A stretch of 64,000 bases of DNA from an uncultured Bdellovibrionales bacterium (GCA_964406815.1 CAYOTC010000001.1:70-64069); one strand, 5' to 3'. Shown: positions 26,559-62,706, counted from the first letter of the stretch. Numbers and translations: made by a program. The notes: generated from the letters alone by a model not told the origin.

Positions 26559-27038
26559 ATGGCTGAAGAAAAAGATTTAAAAAAAGAAATAGAAACCACG
26601 AAAGAATCATCCGCAGAAAAAACGGCCGTTTCTGAAAATGCGACTCCGACTGAGGCGGAAATCAAGAAAAAAGTCAAAAAAATCAAACGCCAAATCATAA
26701 AAGGGAGAGCGACTGTCAAATGTTCTTATAATAACACCATTATAAGCATTGCTGATATGAATGGGGGAACATTGGCTTGGGCTTCATCCGGACTTATCGG
26801 TTTCAAGGGAGCGAAAAAAGCTACTCCTTATGCATCAACTCAAGTTGTGGCGAATGTCAGTGAGAAAGTTAAGAAATACGGACTCAAAGAATTGGAAGTT
26901 TTTGTTAAGGGAGTGGGTTCCGGAAGAGAGGCTTCTATAAGAGCTTTGGCGAACAATGGTTTTGATTTAGTAAGTATAAAAGATATCACCCCAATACCGC
27001 ATAACGGTTGCCGGCCGAAAAAGCCGAGAAGGGTTTAA
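26559..27038 (+). CDS. rpsK: Ribosomal protein S11 (K-rich N-terminal extension).
   Basis: TPYASTQVVANVSEKVKKYGLKELEVFVKGVGSGREASIRAL. Confidence 0.9.
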   Translation: MAEEKDLKKEIETTKESSAEKTAVSENATPTEAEIKKKVKKIKRQIIKGRATVKCSYNNTIISIADMNGGTLAWASSGLIGFKGAKKATPYASTQVVANVSEKVKKYGLKELEVFVKGVGSGREASIRALANNGFDLVSIKDITPIPHNGCRPKKPRRV

Positions 27039-27067
27039 AATAAGCATATAAATTTATCAAGTTAAAT

Positions 27068-27700
27068 ATGGCAAGAGAAACTAACGCAAAATGTAGAAAA
27101 TGCAGAAGAGCAATGGAAAAACTTTTTTTGAAAGGTGATCGTTGCTATAGCGCCAAATGTGCTGTGGTTAAGCGCGCTTATGCTCCCGGAGTTCATGGAA
27201 AAAACATGACAAGGAATAAGAGCGAATACGGAATGCAACTTGCGGTCAAACAGAAAATAAAGAGAATATACGGAGTTTTGGAAAGACAATTCCGCAAACA
27301 TTTCGAGGAAGTCAGACACAAGAAAGGAGTGACTGGAGATCAATTGATACAAAGACTAGAAATGCGTCTTGATAACATTGTTTATCGCATAGGTTTTGCC
27401 ACTTCAAGAGCATTGGCCAGGCAACTCGTTAACCACGGTCTTATTGCTGTAAATGGCAAAAAACTTTCCATACCTTCCTATGAAGTAAAGGTTGGACAAG
27501 TAATTTCCATAAAAGATAATAAGAAAAATAAGAATTATTTCAAAAATATCGAACAATATTTGAAAAATAAAAAAGATTTTCCTTCGTGGATCAGTTTTGA
27601 TGAAAGCAAGTTGGAAGGAAAAATATCAAATCTCCCAATTAAAGATGAAATCGGCATCAATGTTGATGCCCAGGCAGTTGTCGAATACTATTCAAGATAA
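27068..27700 (+). CDS. rpsD: Ribosomal protein S4.
   Basis: MARETNAKCRKCRRAMEKLFLKGDRCYSAKCAV, with an S4 domain. Confidence 0.9.
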   Translation: MARETNAKCRKCRRAMEKLFLKGDRCYSAKCAVVKRAYAPGVHGKNMTRNKSEYGMQLAVKQKIKRIYGVLERQFRKHFEEVRHKKGVTGDQLIQRLEMRLDNIVYRIGFATSRALARQLVNHGLIAVNGKKLSIPSYEVKVGQVISIKDNKKNKNYFKNIEQYLKNKKDFPSWISFDESKLEGKISNLPIKDEIGINVDAQAVVEYYSR

Positions 27701-27788
27701 ATTAAAAAAGCCGACGTTGCTGGCTCCGGATTTTGAAATAATAATTTTCAAAATTTAAAAAAGCCAGAGAGTTACGGCCAAAAGCAAT

Positions 27789-28763
27789 ATGCAAATATCA
27801 CTCCCTCAAAAGCCAAAATTTACTCCGATTGACGAAAAAAGCGGAAAATTTGAAATTGAAGGATGCTACCCGGGTTATGGAATGACGCTAGGAAACGCTC
27901 TTCGTCGAGTGCTTCTGTCTTCTCTTTCCGGAGCAGCTATAATTTCCGTCAAAATCAAGGGAGTGAAGCACGAATTTTCAACGATTCCGAATGTCTTGGA
28001 AGATGTTATCCAGATAATTCTTAATCTCAAGCAGGTTCGTTTTAAATCTCATAAGGAAGAAGGAACTGTTACTGTTTCTCTTAAGGTTAAAGGCGAAAAG
28101 AAAATTACAGCTGGAATGATAGAATGTCCTTCAGATGTCGAGGTTATTACCAAGGATGCTCATATTGCAACTATCACTAGTCCGAAAGGCGAGATTGAGA
28201 TAGAAATGGAGATTGGAACAGGTATTGGCTACGTTCCGGTTGAACAGCAGAATCGCGAAACTAAAGAAGTTGGAACGATTGCAGTGGATGCGATTTATAC
28301 TCCGTTGAGAAGAGTCAATTATACGGTGGAAAATATGCGTGTCGGAAAAAGAACCGATTTTGAAAAGATAAATCTTGATATTGTTACTGATGGAAGTATT
28401 TCTCCGGAAGAAGCTTTTTCTAAAGCAGTAAGAATTCTTGTTGATCAGTTTTCGGTATTTTCTGATTTTGAAGAAAAGAAGATTGAAATTGAAAAAACTG
28501 AAAAAGTGAAAGAAATCAAAGAGGAAAAAGTGGAAGAAATTTCTGAAGATAAGAATGAAGATCCGAAGGAAACTGCAGTTGCTGATCTTAAAAGTCTCTC
28601 CACCCGAACACTTAATGTCTTGGAAAAAGAAGGCATAAATACAATAGGGGATATAATGAAGCTTACAGAGGATCAAATTGCCGAATTGGAAGGGATGGGA
28701 GAAAAAGGAATTAAGGAAATAAAAAAAGCTATTGGAGATTTCGGAATAAATTTAAAAAAATAG
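27789..28763 (+). CDS. rpoA: DNA-directed RNA polymerase alpha subunit.
   Basis: GYGMTLGNALRRVLLSSLSGAAI. C-terminal alpha-CTD HhH region. Confidence 0.9.
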   Translation: MQISLPQKPKFTPIDEKSGKFEIEGCYPGYGMTLGNALRRVLLSSLSGAAIISVKIKGVKHEFSTIPNVLEDVIQIILNLKQVRFKSHKEEGTVTVSLKVKGEKKITAGMIECPSDVEVITKDAHIATITSPKGEIEIEMEIGTGIGYVPVEQQNRETKEVGTIAVDAIYTPLRRVNYTVENMRVGKRTDFEKINLDIVTDGSISPEEAFSKAVRILVDQFSVFSDFEEKKIEIEKTEKVKEIKEEKVEEISEDKNEDPKETAVADLKSLSTRTLNVLEKEGINTIGDIMKLTEDQIAELEGMGEKGIKEIKKAIGDFGINLKK

Positions 28764-28835
28764 TAAAGATTAAATCGTGATTATGGCGGGATATATGTGT
28801 TATTTGTTTCGCCAGACGTTTTATACTAGATAATT

Positions 28836-29204
28836 ATGCGTCATCTAAAGAAAGGAAAAGAACTGGGAAGAGTCAGTGATAAGAGAAAAGCGTTGTTTCG
28901 TACAATGCTGGGAAGTTTGATAATGAATGAAAATATCAAAACCACTGAAACCAAAGCTAAGGAAATTAAAGGCAAGGTTGATCGTATTATAAATAAGGCC
29001 AAAAAAAGCAAGGATGAGAAGAAAAAAGTGGCAGTTATTCGTGATTTGAAAAAATATATTCCGGCTATGGCAGTTAAGAAAATAGTTGGTGAATTTTTGG
29101 ATAAGTTTTCAAAAAGAAACAGTGGCTATGCCAGAATAATTAAATTAGCTCCACGGAAGAGCGACGGAGCAAAAATCGCAGTTATAGAACTTATTACAGA
29201 TTAA
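28836..29204 (+). CDS. rplQ: Ribosomal protein L17.
   Basis: MRHLKKGKELGRVSDKRKALFRTM... Confidence 0.9.
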   Translation: MRHLKKGKELGRVSDKRKALFRTMLGSLIMNENIKTTETKAKEIKGKVDRIINKAKKSKDEKKKVAVIRDLKKYIPAMAVKKIVGEFLDKFSKRNSGYARIIKLAPRKSDGAKIAVIELITD

Positions 29205-29208
29205 ATTT

Positions 29209-29613
29209 ATGAAAAAACCAATTGACAGAAAATATCATTTATTCGATGCCGAGGGAAAGACTCCTGGAAGATTCGCTACTCAAATCGCTACGATTCTTCG
29301 CGGAAAGAATAAGATTGATTTCACTCCGCATATTGATGCGGGAGATTTTGTTGTTGTTATAAACTCTGACAAGATGAATGTTTTGGGAGGAAAAGAGCAG
29401 AAAAAAGTTTATTATCGATATTCAGGATATCCGGGCGGAATCACTGCTACGAGATTTGAAGAGCAGATGGAAAAAGATTCCAGAAAAATAGTCCAAGATG
29501 CGGTTTATGGAATGCTTCCGAAGAATAAATTGAGAAGCAATATGATGAATAGATTGCTTGTCTACAAGGACGATAAGCATGATCATAAGATAGAAATAAA
29601 TCATAATGCATAA
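29209..29613 (+). CDS. rplM: Ribosomal protein L13.
   Basis: KTPGRFATQIATILRGKNKIDFTPHIDAGDFVVVINSDK. Confidence 0.9.
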   Translation: MKKPIDRKYHLFDAEGKTPGRFATQIATILRGKNKIDFTPHIDAGDFVVVINSDKMNVLGGKEQKKVYYRYSGYPGGITATRFEEQMEKDSRKIVQDAVYGMLPKNKLRSNMMNRLLVYKDDKHDHKIEINHNA

Positions 29614-29683
29614 AATATTATAATGAGCATCATGAAATGTAGTCGGTTATAATTTACGATTCATGAGGCCAAGATTTGTTAAT

Positions 29684-30121
29684 ATGGCAACTAAGAATGC
29701 TAAAAAAGAAAATATCAAGAAAGACGATGTGAAATATTTCTATGCCGTCGGAAAAAGAAAGACTGCTATCGCTCAAGTCAGGATTTATCCGGTTGAAAAG
29801 TCGAAAGATTTTTCCGTAAATGATAGGAAGCTGGAAAAATATTTCACTATTCCAAGGCACGCTGAAGCGGCTAAGGCTCCTTTGGTGGCGACTGGTCAAG
29901 AAGAAAAATTCGATGTTTCCGTGCATATTATAGGCGGAGGAATTAATGCGCAATCTGAAGCAGTGAGGCTTGGAGTTGCAAGAGCTATTTTGAAATATGA
30001 CGAATCTTTCAGGAAGGCTTTAAGAGACTTGGGTTATCTTACTCGGGACTCAAGAATGGTGGAAAGAAAGAAACCTGGACTCAAAAAAGCAAGACGTGCT
30101 CCGCAGTGGGCAAAAAGATAA
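29684..30121 (+). CDS. rpsI: Ribosomal protein S9 (start at MATKNAKKEN; the track ORF begins at 29663).
   Basis: YFYAVGKRKTAIAQVRIYP...GGGINAQSEAVRLGVARAIL...KARRAPQWAKR. Confidence 0.85.
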   Translation: MATKNAKKENIKKDDVKYFYAVGKRKTAIAQVRIYPVEKSKDFSVNDRKLEKYFTIPRHAEAAKAPLVATGQEEKFDVSVHIIGGGINAQSEAVRLGVARAILKYDESFRKALRDLGYLTRDSRMVERKKPGLKKARRAPQWAKR

Positions 30122-30148
30122 AAGCGCTGAAGCGCTTTTTTTCTTTTT
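30122..30148 (+). terminator. Rho-independent terminator of the ribosomal-protein/rpoA operon.
   Basis: aAAGCGCTgAAGCGCTttttttctttttt. Confidence 0.7.
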
Positions 30149-30267
30149 GCCCACTGCGGACAAAGGGGGTCGGGGAAAAGTATTTTCCCCGTTTGGGGTG
30201 ACCGAGCGACTAAGCGAGGACAAGAGGGCGGAAGCCCTATTGGGAGCAAAGAGACCCGTAAGTGGGC
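30149..30267 (+). ncRNA. Candidate structured small RNA (GC-rich island). Possibly SRP (4.5S-like) RNA; strand uncertain.
   Basis: 7-bp closing stem GCCCACT...AGTGGGC. Internal hairpins GGGGAAAAgtaTTTTCCCC and AGGGC-GGAA-GCCCT (a GNRA tetraloop as in SRP helix 8). About 60% GC inside an AT-rich spacer. Overlapping track ORFs 30034..30249(-) and 30096..30389(+) look spurious. Confidence 0.3.
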
Positions 30268-30344
30268 AAAGCGTTAGTTTTTATAGAGAAATTTATGAAA
30301 GCATCCAATTTTTATCGGGTGCTTTTTTTATTGATTTTTTAGTG

Positions 30345-30373
30345 TTGACATATGTACAGAACGGCCTTATATT
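30345..30373 (+). promoter_or_regulatory. Near-consensus sigma70 promoter TTGACA-N17-TATATT.
   Basis: gtgTTGACAtatgtacagaacggccTTATATTattg. Confidence 0.55.
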
Positions 30374-30510
30374 ATTGACAGTTATTTGAAATATTATTAT
30401 TGGTCGTAGCCAAAAGACACCAAAATCAAGGTATTTTTGGCTATGACCAAATTAGTGGATTAGATGAGGGTAAAAATAAAAAAGCGCAATTTAGCGCGAA
30501 GGAGGAGATT

Positions 30511-31176
30511 ATGAGAGAAAATTTTGCAATTGCAGAAGTGTTGCCAAGAAAGCTCAATGCGATGGTGAAACGTATCATGAGGCAAATGGGAATTAATGAT
30601 CCCAATGAGGCGGTCCGTCGGATTAATTCTGAAGAATGGGTTGTTTCCAAAGCCATAATAAGTAACTGGCGTGGACTCAGTGGAGTAATTTCTCTTGGAA
30701 CTTTTACTTCTGATGGCACGACTGGTTCGCAGTGGATTAATCGTCTTGAGTTAAATGGATCCATAATTACAGGCTTGGCGAAGGATGTGCTTAATTCTAA
30801 GAGTTTCAAGCCGACAAATGGATTAACATTTGAAATTGTGGTACTCAAGGGAATGCTGTGGGAAGATGGTGACCGTATCACAAGGATGATTCGCGAGGGT
30901 GCCTATTCGGGAAATTTTGCTGGTGGCAACAAACTCATTGATCCAAATCCAGAATTCGCTTGTCTTATTCGGGAAAAATTATCAAATAAGGAAATTGAAG
31001 ATATGAATCTTAACCATATCGTTGTCATGCATAAATCCATCAACGATTCCGATGGTGATCCGAGTCTGCTTGGCCTTCACTGCATTGGTGGCAAGTGTCT
31101 GGATACTTTAATTGAAGGATATGATGATGATTGGGGGGGCGATTGCTATGGGTTTGCTTTTGCTCTTGCAAGTTAG
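30511..31176 (+). CDS. Hypothetical protein (start re-assigned to the ATG with the strong SD; the track ORF starts at 30400).
   Basis: SD gcgAAGGAGGagattATG. No recognisable motif. Confidence 0.4.
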   Translation: MRENFAIAEVLPRKLNAMVKRIMRQMGINDPNEAVRRINSEEWVVSKAIISNWRGLSGVISLGTFTSDGTTGSQWINRLELNGSIITGLAKDVLNSKSFKPTNGLTFEIVVLKGMLWEDGDRITRMIREGAYSGNFAGGNKLIDPNPEFACLIREKLSNKEIEDMNLNHIVVMHKSINDSDGDPSLLGLHCIGGKCLDTLIEGYDDDWGGDCYGFAFALAS

Positions 31177-31352
31177 TGCTTGGGGTTTGAAATATTAGAA
31201 TAACCCTAAATTCAGTCTTTAAAAAAAGAGTCTTGCGTTGAATCTTCGCGCGGGGCTCTTTTTATTTTTTTCATATTGACAAAATGTTTCCAAAGCGCTA
31301 GTTTTTAGGAAGTTATTTTTATTTGAAACCTTTTAAAACAAGGAGAGAAATT

Positions 31353-31682
31353 ATGGAAAATGTAGTCCATGCTTCTCCTTGTAATGATTGCAAGGAGAGA
31401 GAAAAGTTCGATTTTTTCGGATGCACGAAAAATTGCAAAGCATTCTTTGAACATCTGAAAAAGGTTTTTGAGAAAGAGTGTAGTCCCTGTATGGATTTCC
31501 GCTGTGCTATTCCTAGGGTAAATGAAAAAAACCGGGAAAAATGCAGGAAATGTCCTTTGCCAGGAATCTATTCGGAGAGGGTAGGTATTGGACCAAAAAG
31601 CAAATTGGGCAGAAGGATAGAAACTGATTCATATCTCTATCCGTATGAAGGAAAATATCCTTGGGAAGGGAAAAGAAGATGA
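31353..31682 (+). CDS. Small cysteine-rich protein (10 Cys in about 109 aa), hypothetical.
   Basis: SD aacAAGGAGagaaattATG. CNDC...CTKNC...CSPC...C...CRKC pattern. Confidence 0.4.
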   Translation: MENVVHASPCNDCKEREKFDFFGCTKNCKAFFEHLKKVFEKECSPCMDFRCAIPRVNEKNREKCRKCPLPGIYSERVGIGPKSKLGRRIETDSYLYPYEGKYPWEGKRR

Positions 31683-36071: not shown

Positions 36072-36119
36072 CATAATGCTATGGCAGAAGCGGGCTTGCT
36101 CGCCGAAGCTAAAGATTCG

Positions 36120-36186
36120 GCGGGATTCGTACAGTGTTAGTACGGCGGTCTCCAACCCCGCCTTTCGCGAAAGGCGGGGCGATTCC
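36120..36186 (+). pseudogene. Degenerate partial copy of tRNA-Trp. The 5' 36 nt are 35/36 identical to the intact gene; this is followed by a perfect 10-bp GC hairpin replacing the anticodon-3'/variable/T-stem region, then CGATTCC (a T-loop remnant).
   Basis: GCGGGATTCGTACAGTGtTAGTACGGCGGTCTCCAA versus the intact GCGGGATTCGTACAGTGgTAGTACGGCGGTCTCCAA. Then CCCCGCCTTTcgcgAAAGGCGGGG, then cgattcc. Confidence 0.6.
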
Positions 36187-36194
36187 ATAAAAAT

Positions 36195-36443
36195 ATGTAT
36201 TATGTATATTTGCTAAAAAGTCGTAAAGATCAGGGATATTATATAGGGTTTTCAGAAAATATTGATTTTCGATTTCAACAACATTGTAACGGATTGGTTG
36301 TTTCCACAAAAAATAGAAGGCTTCTGGATTTGATTTATTTTGAATCATATTCATCAAAAGAGTTGGCACAAGAAAGGGAGAAGAATCTTAAAAAATTCGG
36401 ATCGGCCTACAGCGGACTTTTGAAAAGATTGTGCGAAAAATAA
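36195..36443 (+). CDS. GIY-YIG nuclease-family small protein (82 aa).
   Basis: MYYVYLLKSRKDQGYYIGFSENIDFRFQQHCNG matches the GIY...YIG...R..H...N core of the GIY-YIG superfamily. Confidence 0.65.
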   Translation: MYYVYLLKSRKDQGYYIGFSENIDFRFQQHCNGLVVSTKNRRLLDLIYFESYSSKELAQEREKNLKKFGSAYSGLLKRLCEK

Positions 36444-47257: not shown

Positions 47258-47300
47258 AGGCTGGGACGAATCTTGATTCGAACCAGCCTGTTTTTTATAG
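47258..47300 (+). terminator. Terminator-like hairpin after the PAS gene.
   Basis: AGGCTGGgacgaatcttgattcgaaCCAGCCTgtttttt. Confidence 0.5.
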
Positions 47301-47489
47301 AAAAGATAGTTTTATTAATGTTGAGGCTCTGGGACGAAGTTGGAACTTATTTATCTCTTAGAGTTGAATAATTTTCTTGGTATATATTATGATTTCTATA
47401 TGTTTTTATTTTCTCAAAATATGGTGTAAAATAAAGAAAATAGCAATTTCTTTTAATTAAGGGGGTTTTATAAAATAAATTTAAAAAAT

Positions 47490-48197
47490 ATGGCAGATTT
47501 AAAAAAGGATATTATTGGCATCACTATCGGAATAAGATTTGGCAGATCATTTAGAATGTCTGATATATCCGGTGAAATAATTGATAATATCTTATACAGC
47601 GAAGAAACTCCATTTGGAACAGATTTTTTTCCTCAAGTTCAAGAAAATTCAAAGAGAGAGAAAACTTTATTTAATCCTAGTACCTCCGAATATCTAAGAA
47701 TCAATACCGATGATTTAATCTTGGGAATAGAGATTAACAATAATTTCGAAGAAAAATTTAATTGGCTTAAGGATGATGTTATAAAATATTTAAAAGATAT
47801 CCTTTTCCACAAATATAATATAAAAAATATCCAGAGGTTAGGTATTATCTTTTCTCATAAAATCGCTAAAAATAAAAAACTTAGCGAAGCAATAAATATA
47901 CTTACTGCAAGCAATGTATCTGATCCTGATAATATAAGCATTTCTTTTTCAAAAAAAGCTTCAACTGAGGAGGCTCTTATTAGAAAAGGTGTTAGTGATT
48001 ATAAAAATAGAATTTATAATTTTTACGATTTAAAAGAGTCACTTAGAGTGGATCTCGATTATCAATACTATTACGAACCAGCTATTGAAGATTTGCGAGA
48101 ATGTTTTACTGAAAAAATACTTGAAAATTCTAAGAAATTCCTAGAAAGTGATTTTCATAATTGGTTAAATGCATATAAAAATGAAGAAACCGAATAG
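47490..48197 (+). CDS. Hypothetical protein (AT-rich island cargo).
   Basis: SD aaGGGGGttttataaaataaatttaaaaaatATG. No motif. Confidence 0.3.
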   Translation: MADLKKDIIGITIGIRFGRSFRMSDISGEIIDNILYSEETPFGTDFFPQVQENSKREKTLFNPSTSEYLRINTDDLILGIEINNNFEEKFNWLKDDVIKYLKDILFHKYNIKNIQRLGIIFSHKIAKNKKLSEAINILTASNVSDPDNISISFSKKASTEEALIRKGVSDYKNRIYNFYDLKESLRVDLDYQYYYEPAIEDLRECFTEKILENSKKFLESDFHNWLNAYKNEETE

Positions 48198-48648
48198 ATA
48201 TAATCGGGTCGGAAAAGATTGGAACGAAAAAGAAGCTTATAAAAATTTTTTATCTTCAAAATTTTATTTAGATAAAACTGAAGAAGATTCTGTTGATATA
48301 AGCAAAACAGACGAGTCATCTTTCAATGAAGAAGAGATGAAAACTCCAAATGTTCAAAAAAAATCAAGTCGCTTAAAAGTGAAAGATTTCTTTTTAGAAA
48401 ATTTTGCTATATCAATATTTTCAGGTATACTAATAATTATTTTCGGTGGTTACGTTTATATTAATCGTGAGCAAGGAATACAGGGATCACAAATAAGCTC
48501 TTTAAAAGAAGATGTAAAAGATATTAAAGATGACATTAATAATAATGAAAAAAATCAGACTGAGATCAAAGAGAATTTTAATATTTTTAAAGCTCAAATA
48601 ACCACAGAACTAGATTTTTTAAAAAAACAATTAAATGCTAAAGAATAA
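48169..48648 (+). CDS. Hypothetical protein with one TM helix and a C-terminal coiled coil.
   Basis: TM FAISIFSGILIIIFGGYVYI. Heptad-like C-terminus. Confidence 0.3.
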   Translation: MHIKMKKPNRYNRVGKDWNEKEAYKNFLSSKFYLDKTEEDSVDISKTDESSFNEEEMKTPNVQKKSSRLKVKDFFLENFAISIFSGILIIIFGGYVYINREQGIQGSQISSLKEDVKDIKDDINNNEKNQTEIKENFNIFKAQITTELDFLKKQLNAKE

Positions 48649-48653
48649 AAAAT

Positions 48654-62527: not shown

Positions 62528-62627
62528 TTGATTTGTCATTCCGAATTTATTTCGGAATCTGGAGATTATGAACCCCGTCTGCCGACTAGGCAGGTAAGTT
62601 CAGAGTGATACAATGAACATTTTTTTG

Positions 62628-62706
62628 CTCCGCGGTCCCGCTCAAAAGCGGGACCGCGGCTTTCATTTCTGCCCAAAGCCCCAGTGGGCCTGTTTTGGTT
62701 TTGGCT
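62628..62706 (+). terminator. Terminator region after murF: perfect 12-bp GC hairpin, then a second hairpin with a T-rich tail.
   Basis: CCGCGGTCCCGCtcaaaaGCGGGACCGCGG...GCCCAaagccccagTGGGCctgttttggttttgg. Confidence 0.55.

Follow-up and report, generated by a model that had tools for sequence, protein, structure and literature searches.

What is the G+C-rich block that lies behind the terminator of rpsI, the gene for ribosomal protein S9? The initial annotation of the window (the whole 64,000-nucleotide stretch of DNA that was analysed) had taken it for a structured, non-coding element, a candidate small RNA and possibly SRP RNA. A sequence check places the 119-nt block exactly at 30149–30267. 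Its G+C content, 0.59 across 30150–30249, compares with 0.365 for the whole window. Folded in isolation, the plus strand of the 119 nt reaches −50.2 kcal/mol (z = −3.54, equalled by 0 of 200 shuffles) and the minus strand −42.2 kcal/mol. The description of a G+C-rich, structured, non-coding block behind rpsI is therefore borne out by its 59% G+C, its z of −3.5 and the null outcome of the coding tests reported below. Both internal hairpins that had been pointed out were found: the 8-bp hairpin GGGGAAAA[GUA]UUUUCCCC occupies 30172–30190 and the GGAA-capped hairpin GGGC[GGAA]GCCC occupies 30226–30237. The terminator on the upstream side (30120–30139) and the promoter-like site on the downstream side (30345–30373) are likewise where they had been placed. 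There are no further copies in the 64-kb window, where the element is single-copy.

The rpsI 3' end occurs three times

The initial annotation overlooked the main feature of this locus: copies of the rpsI 3' end make up the outer stem of the block, which is an inserted element missing from a near-identical strain. The coordinates of its parts are collected in table 1.

Table 1. Features of the rpsI locus, in window coordinates.
Feature	Position	Strand	Basis or remark
Copy 1: last rpsI codons (..CCG CAG TGG GCA AAA AGA TAA) + 2 nt	30100..30123	+	24-nt inverted repeat with 30137–30160
Terminator-like hairpin AAAAGCGCU-GA-AGCGCUUUU	30120..30139	+	tip of H0 palindrome
Copy 2: inverted rpsI 3'-end copy (TTTTTTCTTTTTGCCCACTGCGGA)	30137..30160	+	holds 5' strand of the closing stem first proposed
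Conserved family core: AAGGGGGUC, helix P2, GUUUGGGGUGAC, short variable region, helix P4, UUGGGAGC..AGAC	30163..30255	+	
Helix P2: GGG.UC-GGGGAAAA[GUA]UUUUCCCC-G.UUU	30167..30194	+	fold, alignment
Helix P4: CAAGAGGGC[GGAA]GCCCUAUUG, GNRA-capped, internal G-A mismatch	30221..30242	+	
Copy 3: displaced direct rpsI 3'-end copy (CCGTA AG TGG GCA AAG CGT TAG)	30256..30277	+	sequence and repeat search
Second terminator-like hairpin AAGCAUCC..GGGUGCUU + U run	30299..30329	+	sequence and fold

Copy 1 (TCCGCAGTGGGCAAAAAGATAAAA, 30100–30123) forms the 5' arm of a long hairpin, H0, in which it is 96% complementary to copy 2 around the terminator (23 of 24 pairs). The terminator, a hairpin that scores as such on both strands, is the tip of a 61-nt palindrome containing the last seven codons of rpsI and its stop codon. 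Copy 2 matches copy 1 at 29 of 30 positions and copy 3 over 10 nt. In frame, copy 3 reads AAG TGG GCA AAG CGT TAG, that is W-A-K-R-stop, with lysine, arginine and stop codons unlike those of the gene end (TGG GCA AAA AGA TAA). The chance that Lys-Arg-stop should continue a 10-nt repeat is estimated at ~0.002, and by its sequence copy 3 looks like a displaced gene end.

How, then, does the closing stem behave? The stem GCCCACU/AGUGGGC, as first proposed, exists and extends to 10 bp with UUU/AAA, its 3' strand being carried by copy 3. In the rpsI transcript, however, it is outcompeted by the pairing of copy 1 with copy 2. When longer stretches are folded, as RNA or as DNA (z = −8.5 for the DNA fold), copy 2 pairs with the gene end and not with copy 3. 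We conclude that the closing stem is the weaker of two exclusive pairings. The second terminator-like hairpin, which the terminator consensus scan missed because its loop is 10 nt long, is probably the original rpsI terminator, now 3' of the insertion.

A family of elements behind tRNA genes and rpsI

Does the element occur elsewhere? An exact-pattern scan of JGI metagenomes (GGGGAAAANNNTTTTCCCC, gap 20–50, GGGCGGAAGCCC) returned 15 loci against a chance expectation estimated at ~0.001; one of these, L088, duplicates part of L102. A covariance model, R1, scores the scan loci at 83–105 bits. It adds a second copy in L102 (83 bits, P4 loop UUAA), a copy in L106 directly behind rpsI (18 bits) and a weak match in L020, a Gribaldobacteria genome, again directly behind rpsI (15 bits, E 0.009). 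With the window copy and 17 others the family numbers 18, all in sense orientation. The host group is given as Patescibacteria (ultra-small bacteria), the taxonomy having been checked for a minority of the metagenome loci. Among GTDB species representatives, in which the best S9 is 61% identical, nhmmer and blastn find no element; the distant L020 copy surfaced only with the covariance model, after nhmmer and blastn had missed it.

Twelve copies lie 40–130 nt 3' of a tRNA gene (two each for Glu, Lys, Ala and Met, one each for Asn, Pro, Trp and Arg). The upstream tRNA is intact for 11 of these 12 copies (10 of 11 loci), and at the remaining locus the upstream sequence is truncated. The copies behind rpsI number six: that of the window and those of L096, L097, L099, L106 and L020. 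Both arms repeat the 3' end of the local upstream gene at every locus, the 5' arm in inverted orientation (12–30 nt) and the 3' arm in direct orientation (20–57 nt). The 5' arms of the tRNA type cover T-loop, T-stem and part of the acceptor in 12–18 nt; those of the S9 type reach 30 nt and include the stop codon. The 3' arms start in the T-loop, or at UCCGCAG in S9, and end at CCA or the stop codon, sometimes beyond it. The longest, of 57 identical nt (L101) and about 46 nt (tRNA-Arg copy of L102), take in the non-conserved trailer. As a rule the fit of the inverted copy to the intact gene end is no worse than its fit to the displaced copy. Only in L096 is this turned round, copy 3 and not copy 1 pairing perfectly with copy 2 there (22 of 22). 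The displaced S9 ends of L097, L106 and L020 are decayed.

What accompanies the copies? No recombinase, reverse transcriptase or transposase is recognisable beside them, flanking ORFs having been judged by how the listed proteins begin; these starts resemble ordinary or unidentified proteins, and no ORF fits inside the element. The sole recombinase in the window, a large serine recombinase, lies 21 kb from the element. As at attL and attR sites, the insert lies between direct repeats of the 3' end of its target gene, the end of which has been rebuilt. With respect to MITEs, the inverted arms are target-derived and variable, the duplications span 20–57 nt and no contig holds more than two copies.

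A constant core

Between the arms lies a core that is about 100 nt long throughout the family. From its 5' side it runs AAAGGGGGUC, helix P2, then G-YUU-GGGGUGAC and a variable hairpin, P3. The 3' part runs C-N-AGAGGGC[GGAA]GCCCUAU-N-G (P4), GAG, a second variable hairpin, P5, and (A)CGA(C/U), where the 3' arm begins. In the window the model R1 matches 30163–30265 at 100.7 bits (E 2e-30).

Are these stems conserved in related sequences? In the model-fitted alignment 98.8% of the cells of the two conserved helices, P2 and P4, are paired and four pairs are changed on both sides, which 0 of 500 shuffles reach, although this covariation rests on few pairs and on two distant members. Alignments slid out of register, as controls, are only 41–64% paired. 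The second pair of P4 covaries (AU in 7, CG in 7, UA in 2, UG in 1). The distant versions of P2 in L106 and L020, GGAGGGAA[GCA]UUCCCUCC and GGGAAAAC[CUGG]GUUUUCCC, show compensatory changes, two pairs in L106 and three in L020. P3 and P5 differ in sequence between copies and always retain a hairpin. On the other hand, P2 and the P4 stem with its GGAA loop were prescribed by the scan pattern; that they do not vary in the 15 copies is ascertainment, not evidence.

The sense strand is the more stable in 15 of 15 copies tested, by 110 kcal/mol in sum. In these copies the strand sense to the upstream gene is purine-rich, and the G-U/G-T pairs of the core are found on the sense strand only. A sigma-70-type promoter of the element's own is not enriched (2 loci against 3.8 expected). 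The 17 homologues, the paired helices and the stability of the sense strand speak for a conserved block and support the earlier view that it is structured, non-coding and a candidate small RNA.

In one copy (L095, 1985–2030) an extra hairpin (UCCCGAUGGAAGAUCGGGA) stands between GGGGGU and P2, and this junction therefore tolerates insertions.

Is it a known RNA, gene or repeat?

The initial annotation had raised two identities by name, SRP RNA and 6S RNA. With Rfam 15, cmscan at the gathering score reports nothing at the element; elsewhere in the window it reports a LOOT RNA and five tRNAs. A permissive search of 521 nt (30000–30520, E ≤ 10) lists neither SRP nor 6S RNA, its only yield being chance hairpin matches to the terminator palindrome. 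Five other family members overlap no Rfam family at E ≤ 1. Self-cleaving ribozymes, omega RNAs and other Rfam 15 families give only chance hairpin-type matches far below their gathering scores, none of them on the core. We have accordingly rejected the bacterial small SRP RNA (RF00169) and the large SRP RNA (RF01854), unlisted at the gathering score and at E ≤ 10, and 6S RNA (RF00013), for which there is no covariance-model match. With no Rfam 15 match, the SRP and 6S readings fail.

There is a likeness to the small SRP RNA (RF00169): a length of ~100–120 nt, a high G+C content, paired ends and a GGAA-capped hairpin. The element differs in giving no covariance match, in having no conserved helix-8 loops, in being multicopy and in having arms that depend on the target. 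That it should be SRP RNA, 6S RNA or another catalogued RNA has, in our judgement, next to no probability. The only resemblance is the GGAA tetraloop with GAGCA close by, and GAGCA, once likened to SRP helix 8, is variable across the family in the alignment. Neither the window copy nor the five other members match Rfam 15, and several copies per genome, behind tRNAs, are unlike a single-copy housekeeping RNA.

Could the block encode a protein? The two overlapping ORFs, which had been thought spurious, appear to be so: they have no Pfam matches, and no reading frame runs through the family. One of them, a 97-aa ORF over the element that is annotated as a protein on an NCBI contig, has itself as sole homologue in a search of 5.8 billion proteins. 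Distances between conserved blocks fall into all three classes modulo 3, and in some copies no sense frame is free of stop codons; the element is therefore non-coding. With no Pfam match, no homologues and no conserved frame, a protein-coding function was rejected.

Several other candidates were discarded as well. ARAGORN and Rfam find no tRNA or tmRNA beyond the intact upstream tRNAs, the 3' arms being bare fragments from T-loop to CCA. An adenine-tolerant scan of both strands of the 64 kb for the template repeat of a diversity-generating retroelement gave nothing above background. The element is not a conserved partner of the downstream 221-aa gene, whose homologues in L085–L087 have no such element. 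Nor is a phage or plasmid origin indicated: phage records gave no match and plasmids only a 22-nt chance match in two Providencia plasmids, and viral contigs hold no family members, L103 being a chance match within a coding region. An invertible element was rejected on the shared orientation of 18 of 18 copies. An attenuator acting by disruption of the terminator was rejected, the alternative pairing leaving the small terminator hairpin intact. A hammerhead-like or HDV-like layout, judged by eye, has no consensus core and no Rfam match. Neither the core sequence nor elements of this type were found in the searchable literature, from which most subscription journals are absent. The family, being in neither Rfam nor that literature, is apparently undescribed.

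Does the element move?

To address this question we turn to a Logan contig, L081, whose S9 protein is identical to that of the window and whose DNA is 99.3% identical over window positions 26663–30123. L081 is without 30124–31273 and has 59 unrelated bases there instead; similarity returns at 31274 (77%) and stands at 95.8% from 31663 onward. Its rpsI ends CCA CAG TGG GCG AAA CGA TAG. The window differs from this end at 30103, 30112, 30116 and 30121; all four differences are synonymous, and all pair with copy 2. Four of the ~23 differences from L081 are thus crowded into the last 21 nt of rpsI (P about 1e-5, an estimate). Copy 3 and the gene end of L081 share a CGN arginine codon and a TAG stop. 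From these clustered, copy-2-complementary changes and from the L081-like copy 3 we conclude that the present gene end was brought or converted by the inserted DNA and that the older end is copy 3. The L081 locus, not being a clean empty site, shows presence or absence and a recombination boundary rather than the insertion event. Neither a free form nor an excision junction nor an exact empty site was seen. The organism is present in the samples SRR8925779 and SRR8925737, both of which have near-identical contigs.

In contig L102 two cores that are 94% identical, P3 and P5 included, lie behind tRNA-Arg and tRNA-Lys, each with arms that fit its own tRNA. Clustered by their cores, the copies behind S9 genes are interleaved with those behind tRNA genes. 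At the rpsI loci of relatives whose S9 is 68–71% identical, the element is found in L106 and is missing from L104/L105 and L107; the rpsI–rpmE interval holds different unassigned genes in L104/L105 and in L106, and none in L107. The L102 pair, the interleaved clustering and the patchy rpsI loci argue that the element moves and that its arms are remade for each target. Membership of a mobile family of structured elements is accordingly what we consider probable.

A further observation comes from L002 (Liptonbacteria, 2895–2945), in which the rpsI end GGCAAAAACGTTAA is directly repeated 13 nt downstream with no element between. This repeat may be the footprint of a lost insertion at the same site.

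How might it be inserted?

The integrated layout, the same in each copy, reads gene end (copy 1), short loop or terminator, inverted copy 2, core of ~100 nt, copy 3 and native downstream DNA. A free form that would give rise to it is a palindrome, [S-loop-S'], mimicking the target gene end and joined to the core. A single Campbell-type crossover between S and the chromosomal gene end would then leave the loop, S' and the core between the rebuilt and the old ends. The intermediate is probably single-stranded and folded, because units of 110–210 bp are too short for duplex circles and because folding is strand-specific; it could equally be RNA. The core would presumably be recognised by a trans-acting enzyme. 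As the element has no promoter of its own, the core would be either host read-through RNA or folded single-stranded DNA. The rebuilt hairpin would often serve as the terminator of the gene, so that the host gene would be unharmed.

Such a crossover would explain why the last rpsI codons of the window have been replaced by ones complementary to copy 2, and why the host gene is intact, often with a gained terminator. In the model the crossover point varies, whence the perfect pairing of copy 3 with copy 2 in L096. It leaves unaccounted for the source of a new inverted copy at a new target; quasi-palindrome template switching, fold-back priming and snap-back by a reverse transcriptase are candidates. 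We put at even chances the complete proposal, namely a family of non-autonomous mobile elements of ~110–210 bp at the 3' ends of tRNA genes and rpsI that insert by this crossover, single-strand mechanism.

More tentative still, and to our minds rather doubtful, is the suggestion that these are minimal mobile elements of a new class: units of 110–210 nt that pass through a single-stranded DNA or RNA intermediate and build their own hairpin copy of the target 3' end. The conserved core could on that suggestion be a ribozyme or a handle for a trans-acting enzyme, and one core could occupy many safe-harbour sites (tRNA, rpsI) with none disrupted.

What else might it be?

The main rival to the crossover proposal is a SINE-like retroelement, whose core RNA would be co-transcribed with the highly expressed host gene and inserted by a trans-acting reverse transcriptase through target-primed reverse transcription at a nick. 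The direct repeat would then be a target-site duplication of variable length, and the inverted copy would arise by snap-back or template switching or serve in pairing with the upstream transcript. The invariant sense orientation and the lack of enrichment of an own promoter agree with this, as do the strand-specific, RNA-like structure with its GNRA loop and the small size of the units, too small for duplex circles. So does the range of the direct repeats, 20–57 nt, with non-conserved trailer included in the young copies of L101 and L102 (tRNA-Arg). Reverse transcriptases of diversity-generating retroelements do occur in such lineages; one stands next to a homologue of the downstream gene. Yet no reverse transcriptase adjoins any copy; A-tails, 5' truncations and untemplated bases were not seen; and a target-site duplication would not swap the last rpsI codons, relative to L081, for a version complementary to copy 2. 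We regard the retroelement as unlikely.

If it is not mobile at all, might the element be a resident small RNA or 3'-UTR element, read through from the tRNA gene or rpsI and acting in processing, stability or as a termination switch? Its 5' arm would have two alternative partners, the end of the upstream gene and the 3' arm of the element itself, and the repeats would be selected local duplications. That copy 2 can pair with copy 1 or copy 3 and not with both, that the synonymous changes in rpsI strengthen its pairing, that the hairpin is also a predicted terminator and that the core is conserved would all suit such a switch. But the same core stands behind at least ten different tRNA species and rpsI, near-identical cores lie behind different tRNAs in one contig (L102), and the element is missing from the 99.3%-identical strain and from related rpsI loci. 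Moreover, the displaced gene ends decay as pseudo-ends (L097, L106, L020), much as att remnants do; a resident RNA is hence improbable. The last reading is an inert scar, a remnant resembling a cis-mobilisable element, in which an integrase-borne island of larger size has lost its interior, so that its left and right attachment sites now adjoin, and the core is without function. Direct repeats of a gene 3' end together with a rebuilt end are the hallmark of integrase-mediated insertion, rpsI and tRNA genes are known targets (PMC4701971), and the rpsI–rpmE interval is a variable hot spot with unrelated cargo genes. A scar of this sort is nevertheless very improbable: all 18 copies are compact in one and the same way and have a conserved core in common, random deletion remnants would not be expected to share the compensatory changes and strand asymmetry of that core, and ordinary attL/attR sites have no inverted target copy. 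Both the resident RNA and the scar fit the distribution and the conservation poorly.

Surroundings of the element

Downstream of the element lies a gene for a 221-aa protein (30511–31176) of a large family of hypothetical proteins of Patescibacteria (655 matches, no Pfam domain). Beside a bAvd gene, L085 (3001–5544) and L086 each have a homologue that is 56% identical; in L085 a reverse transcriptase comes next, and L086 ends in a cut ORF of 64 aa to which Pfam assigns nothing. Diversity-generating retroelements may therefore target this family; no reverse transcriptase lies near the window copy. The gene belongs to a stretch that resembles a second cassette (30278–31300), composed of a terminator, the promoter at 30345–30373, a 16-bp hairpin (30400–30450), the 221-aa gene and a terminator. 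This stretch, wholly missing in L081, ends with AAAGCGCTAGTTTTTA (31283–31300), a near-repeat of AAAGCGTTAGTTTTTA at the end of copy 3 (30267–30285). Further on, ~300 bp (31362–31662) of a Cys-rich ORF of 119 aa (31323–31682) are missing in L081, the start of the ORF (ATGGAAAAT..) and its end being kept. This small cysteine-rich gene is polymorphic for an indel.

Three other regions of the window drew our attention. A 61% G+C intergenic island at 36078–36190 follows rpmG (L33, 35918–36071) and precedes a small GIY-YIG nuclease ORF (36195–36443; Pfam PF01541, E 1e-13). Its predicted fold has three hairpins (z −2.1), Rfam gives nothing for it at E ≤ 1, and it bears no relation to the rpsI element family; rpmG 3' ends like the one before it are also known integration targets. 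At ~47270–53270 there is a probable integrated element beside tRNA-Gln (52802–52874, minus strand). It holds three unassigned ORFs, the LOOT RNA (49252–49374, 83 bits), a DUF2726 protein and a rolling-circle Rep of the ORF2/G2P type (50392–51312). The ORF of the large serine recombinase (51345–52889) overlaps tRNA-Gln on the other strand and is followed by an Avd-like 23S-rRNA-IVS protein (52914–53267, minus strand). At 47258–47337 occur a repeated TTCGTCCCAG(A)GCC and the T-loop-like GGTTCGAATC. The Rep and the serine recombinase of this element could supply trans-acting functions for the rpsI element. Finally, a G+C-rich intergenic stretch behind a Mur-ligase gene (62560–62700) has a perfect 12-bp hairpin (CCGCGGTCCCGC..GCGGGACCGCGG) and a second hairpin containing CAGTGGGC, and matches neither Rfam at the gathering score nor R1.

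What would follow if the proposal is correct? Patescibacteria would hold a widespread, uncatalogued structured element with a constant core and with arms rewritten for each target, a combination that would be the signature of programmable, nucleic-acid-directed insertion. The element would bear on how streamlined genomes tolerate mobile DNA, as it rebuilds the gene end and supplies a terminator. It would constitute a new non-coding RNA or a new fold of single-stranded DNA, and possibly a lead to a new enzyme of recombination or retro-transposition. For annotation, it accounts for orphan tRNA 3' fragments and for spurious ORFs over the element.

Comparison with known systems

How does the element compare with systems already described? 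In R2 a 5' ribozyme pairs with the 28S rRNA. The element has in common with R2 and SINEs the sense insertion in a conserved, highly transcribed gene, the lack of an own promoter, a 5' part complementary to upstream host sequence and target duplications of variable length. It differs from them in that no reverse transcriptase is adjacent, no Rfam ribozyme matches, there is no tail and the host is bacterial.

With MITEs and with Correia, ERIC and REP/BIME sequences it shares its shortness, its non-coding nature, terminal inverted repeats capable of folding into one long hairpin, a copy number above one per genome and a position near gene ends and terminators. Those repeats have fixed ends that a transposase recognises, whereas here each target is the source of the terminal repeats; in place of a short duplication of fixed length there are long direct repeats of variable extent. 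Strict sense orientation behind tRNA genes or rpsI and an interior with RNA-like covariation likewise set it apart.

In streptococci, tyrosine-integrase elements are established as inserting at the 3' ends of rpsI, rpmG and tRNA genes (PMC4701971). These integrative elements are kilobases long, encode an integrase and have no inverted target copy. The ICEs, IMEs and CIMEs resemble our element in their target classes, in the rebuilding of the gene end by element DNA and in the displaced direct copy (PMC4701971, PMC5357655). Their presence or absence varies among strains, as here. At 110–210 bp, without integrase or cargo and with an extra inverted copy of the target, the element is nonetheless distinct from them. 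Integrase families, furthermore, are target-specific, whereas here one core is found at many targets.

Close in design, too, are the attC sites of integrons and the attP(+) hairpin of CTXphi, folded single-strand attachment sites that mimic a double-stranded target. In both, as here, an inverted repeat of the element can fold into a target-like duplex, and a target-like site, cargo, an inverted copy, a structured spacer of ~100 nt and a direct copy can be made out. Strand-specific folding (in our case predicted) and very small units are further points of likeness. The CTXphi parallel does not extend to dif-like sites, of which the element has none, nor does that with integrons extend to an IntI near the element. 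The boxes RYYYAAC/GTTRRRY of attC are absent, the arms being GCCCACT/AGTGGGC in the window and T-loop-derived elsewhere. The pattern of conservation is turned round: here the spacer is conserved and the stems vary with the target, while attC shows the reverse.
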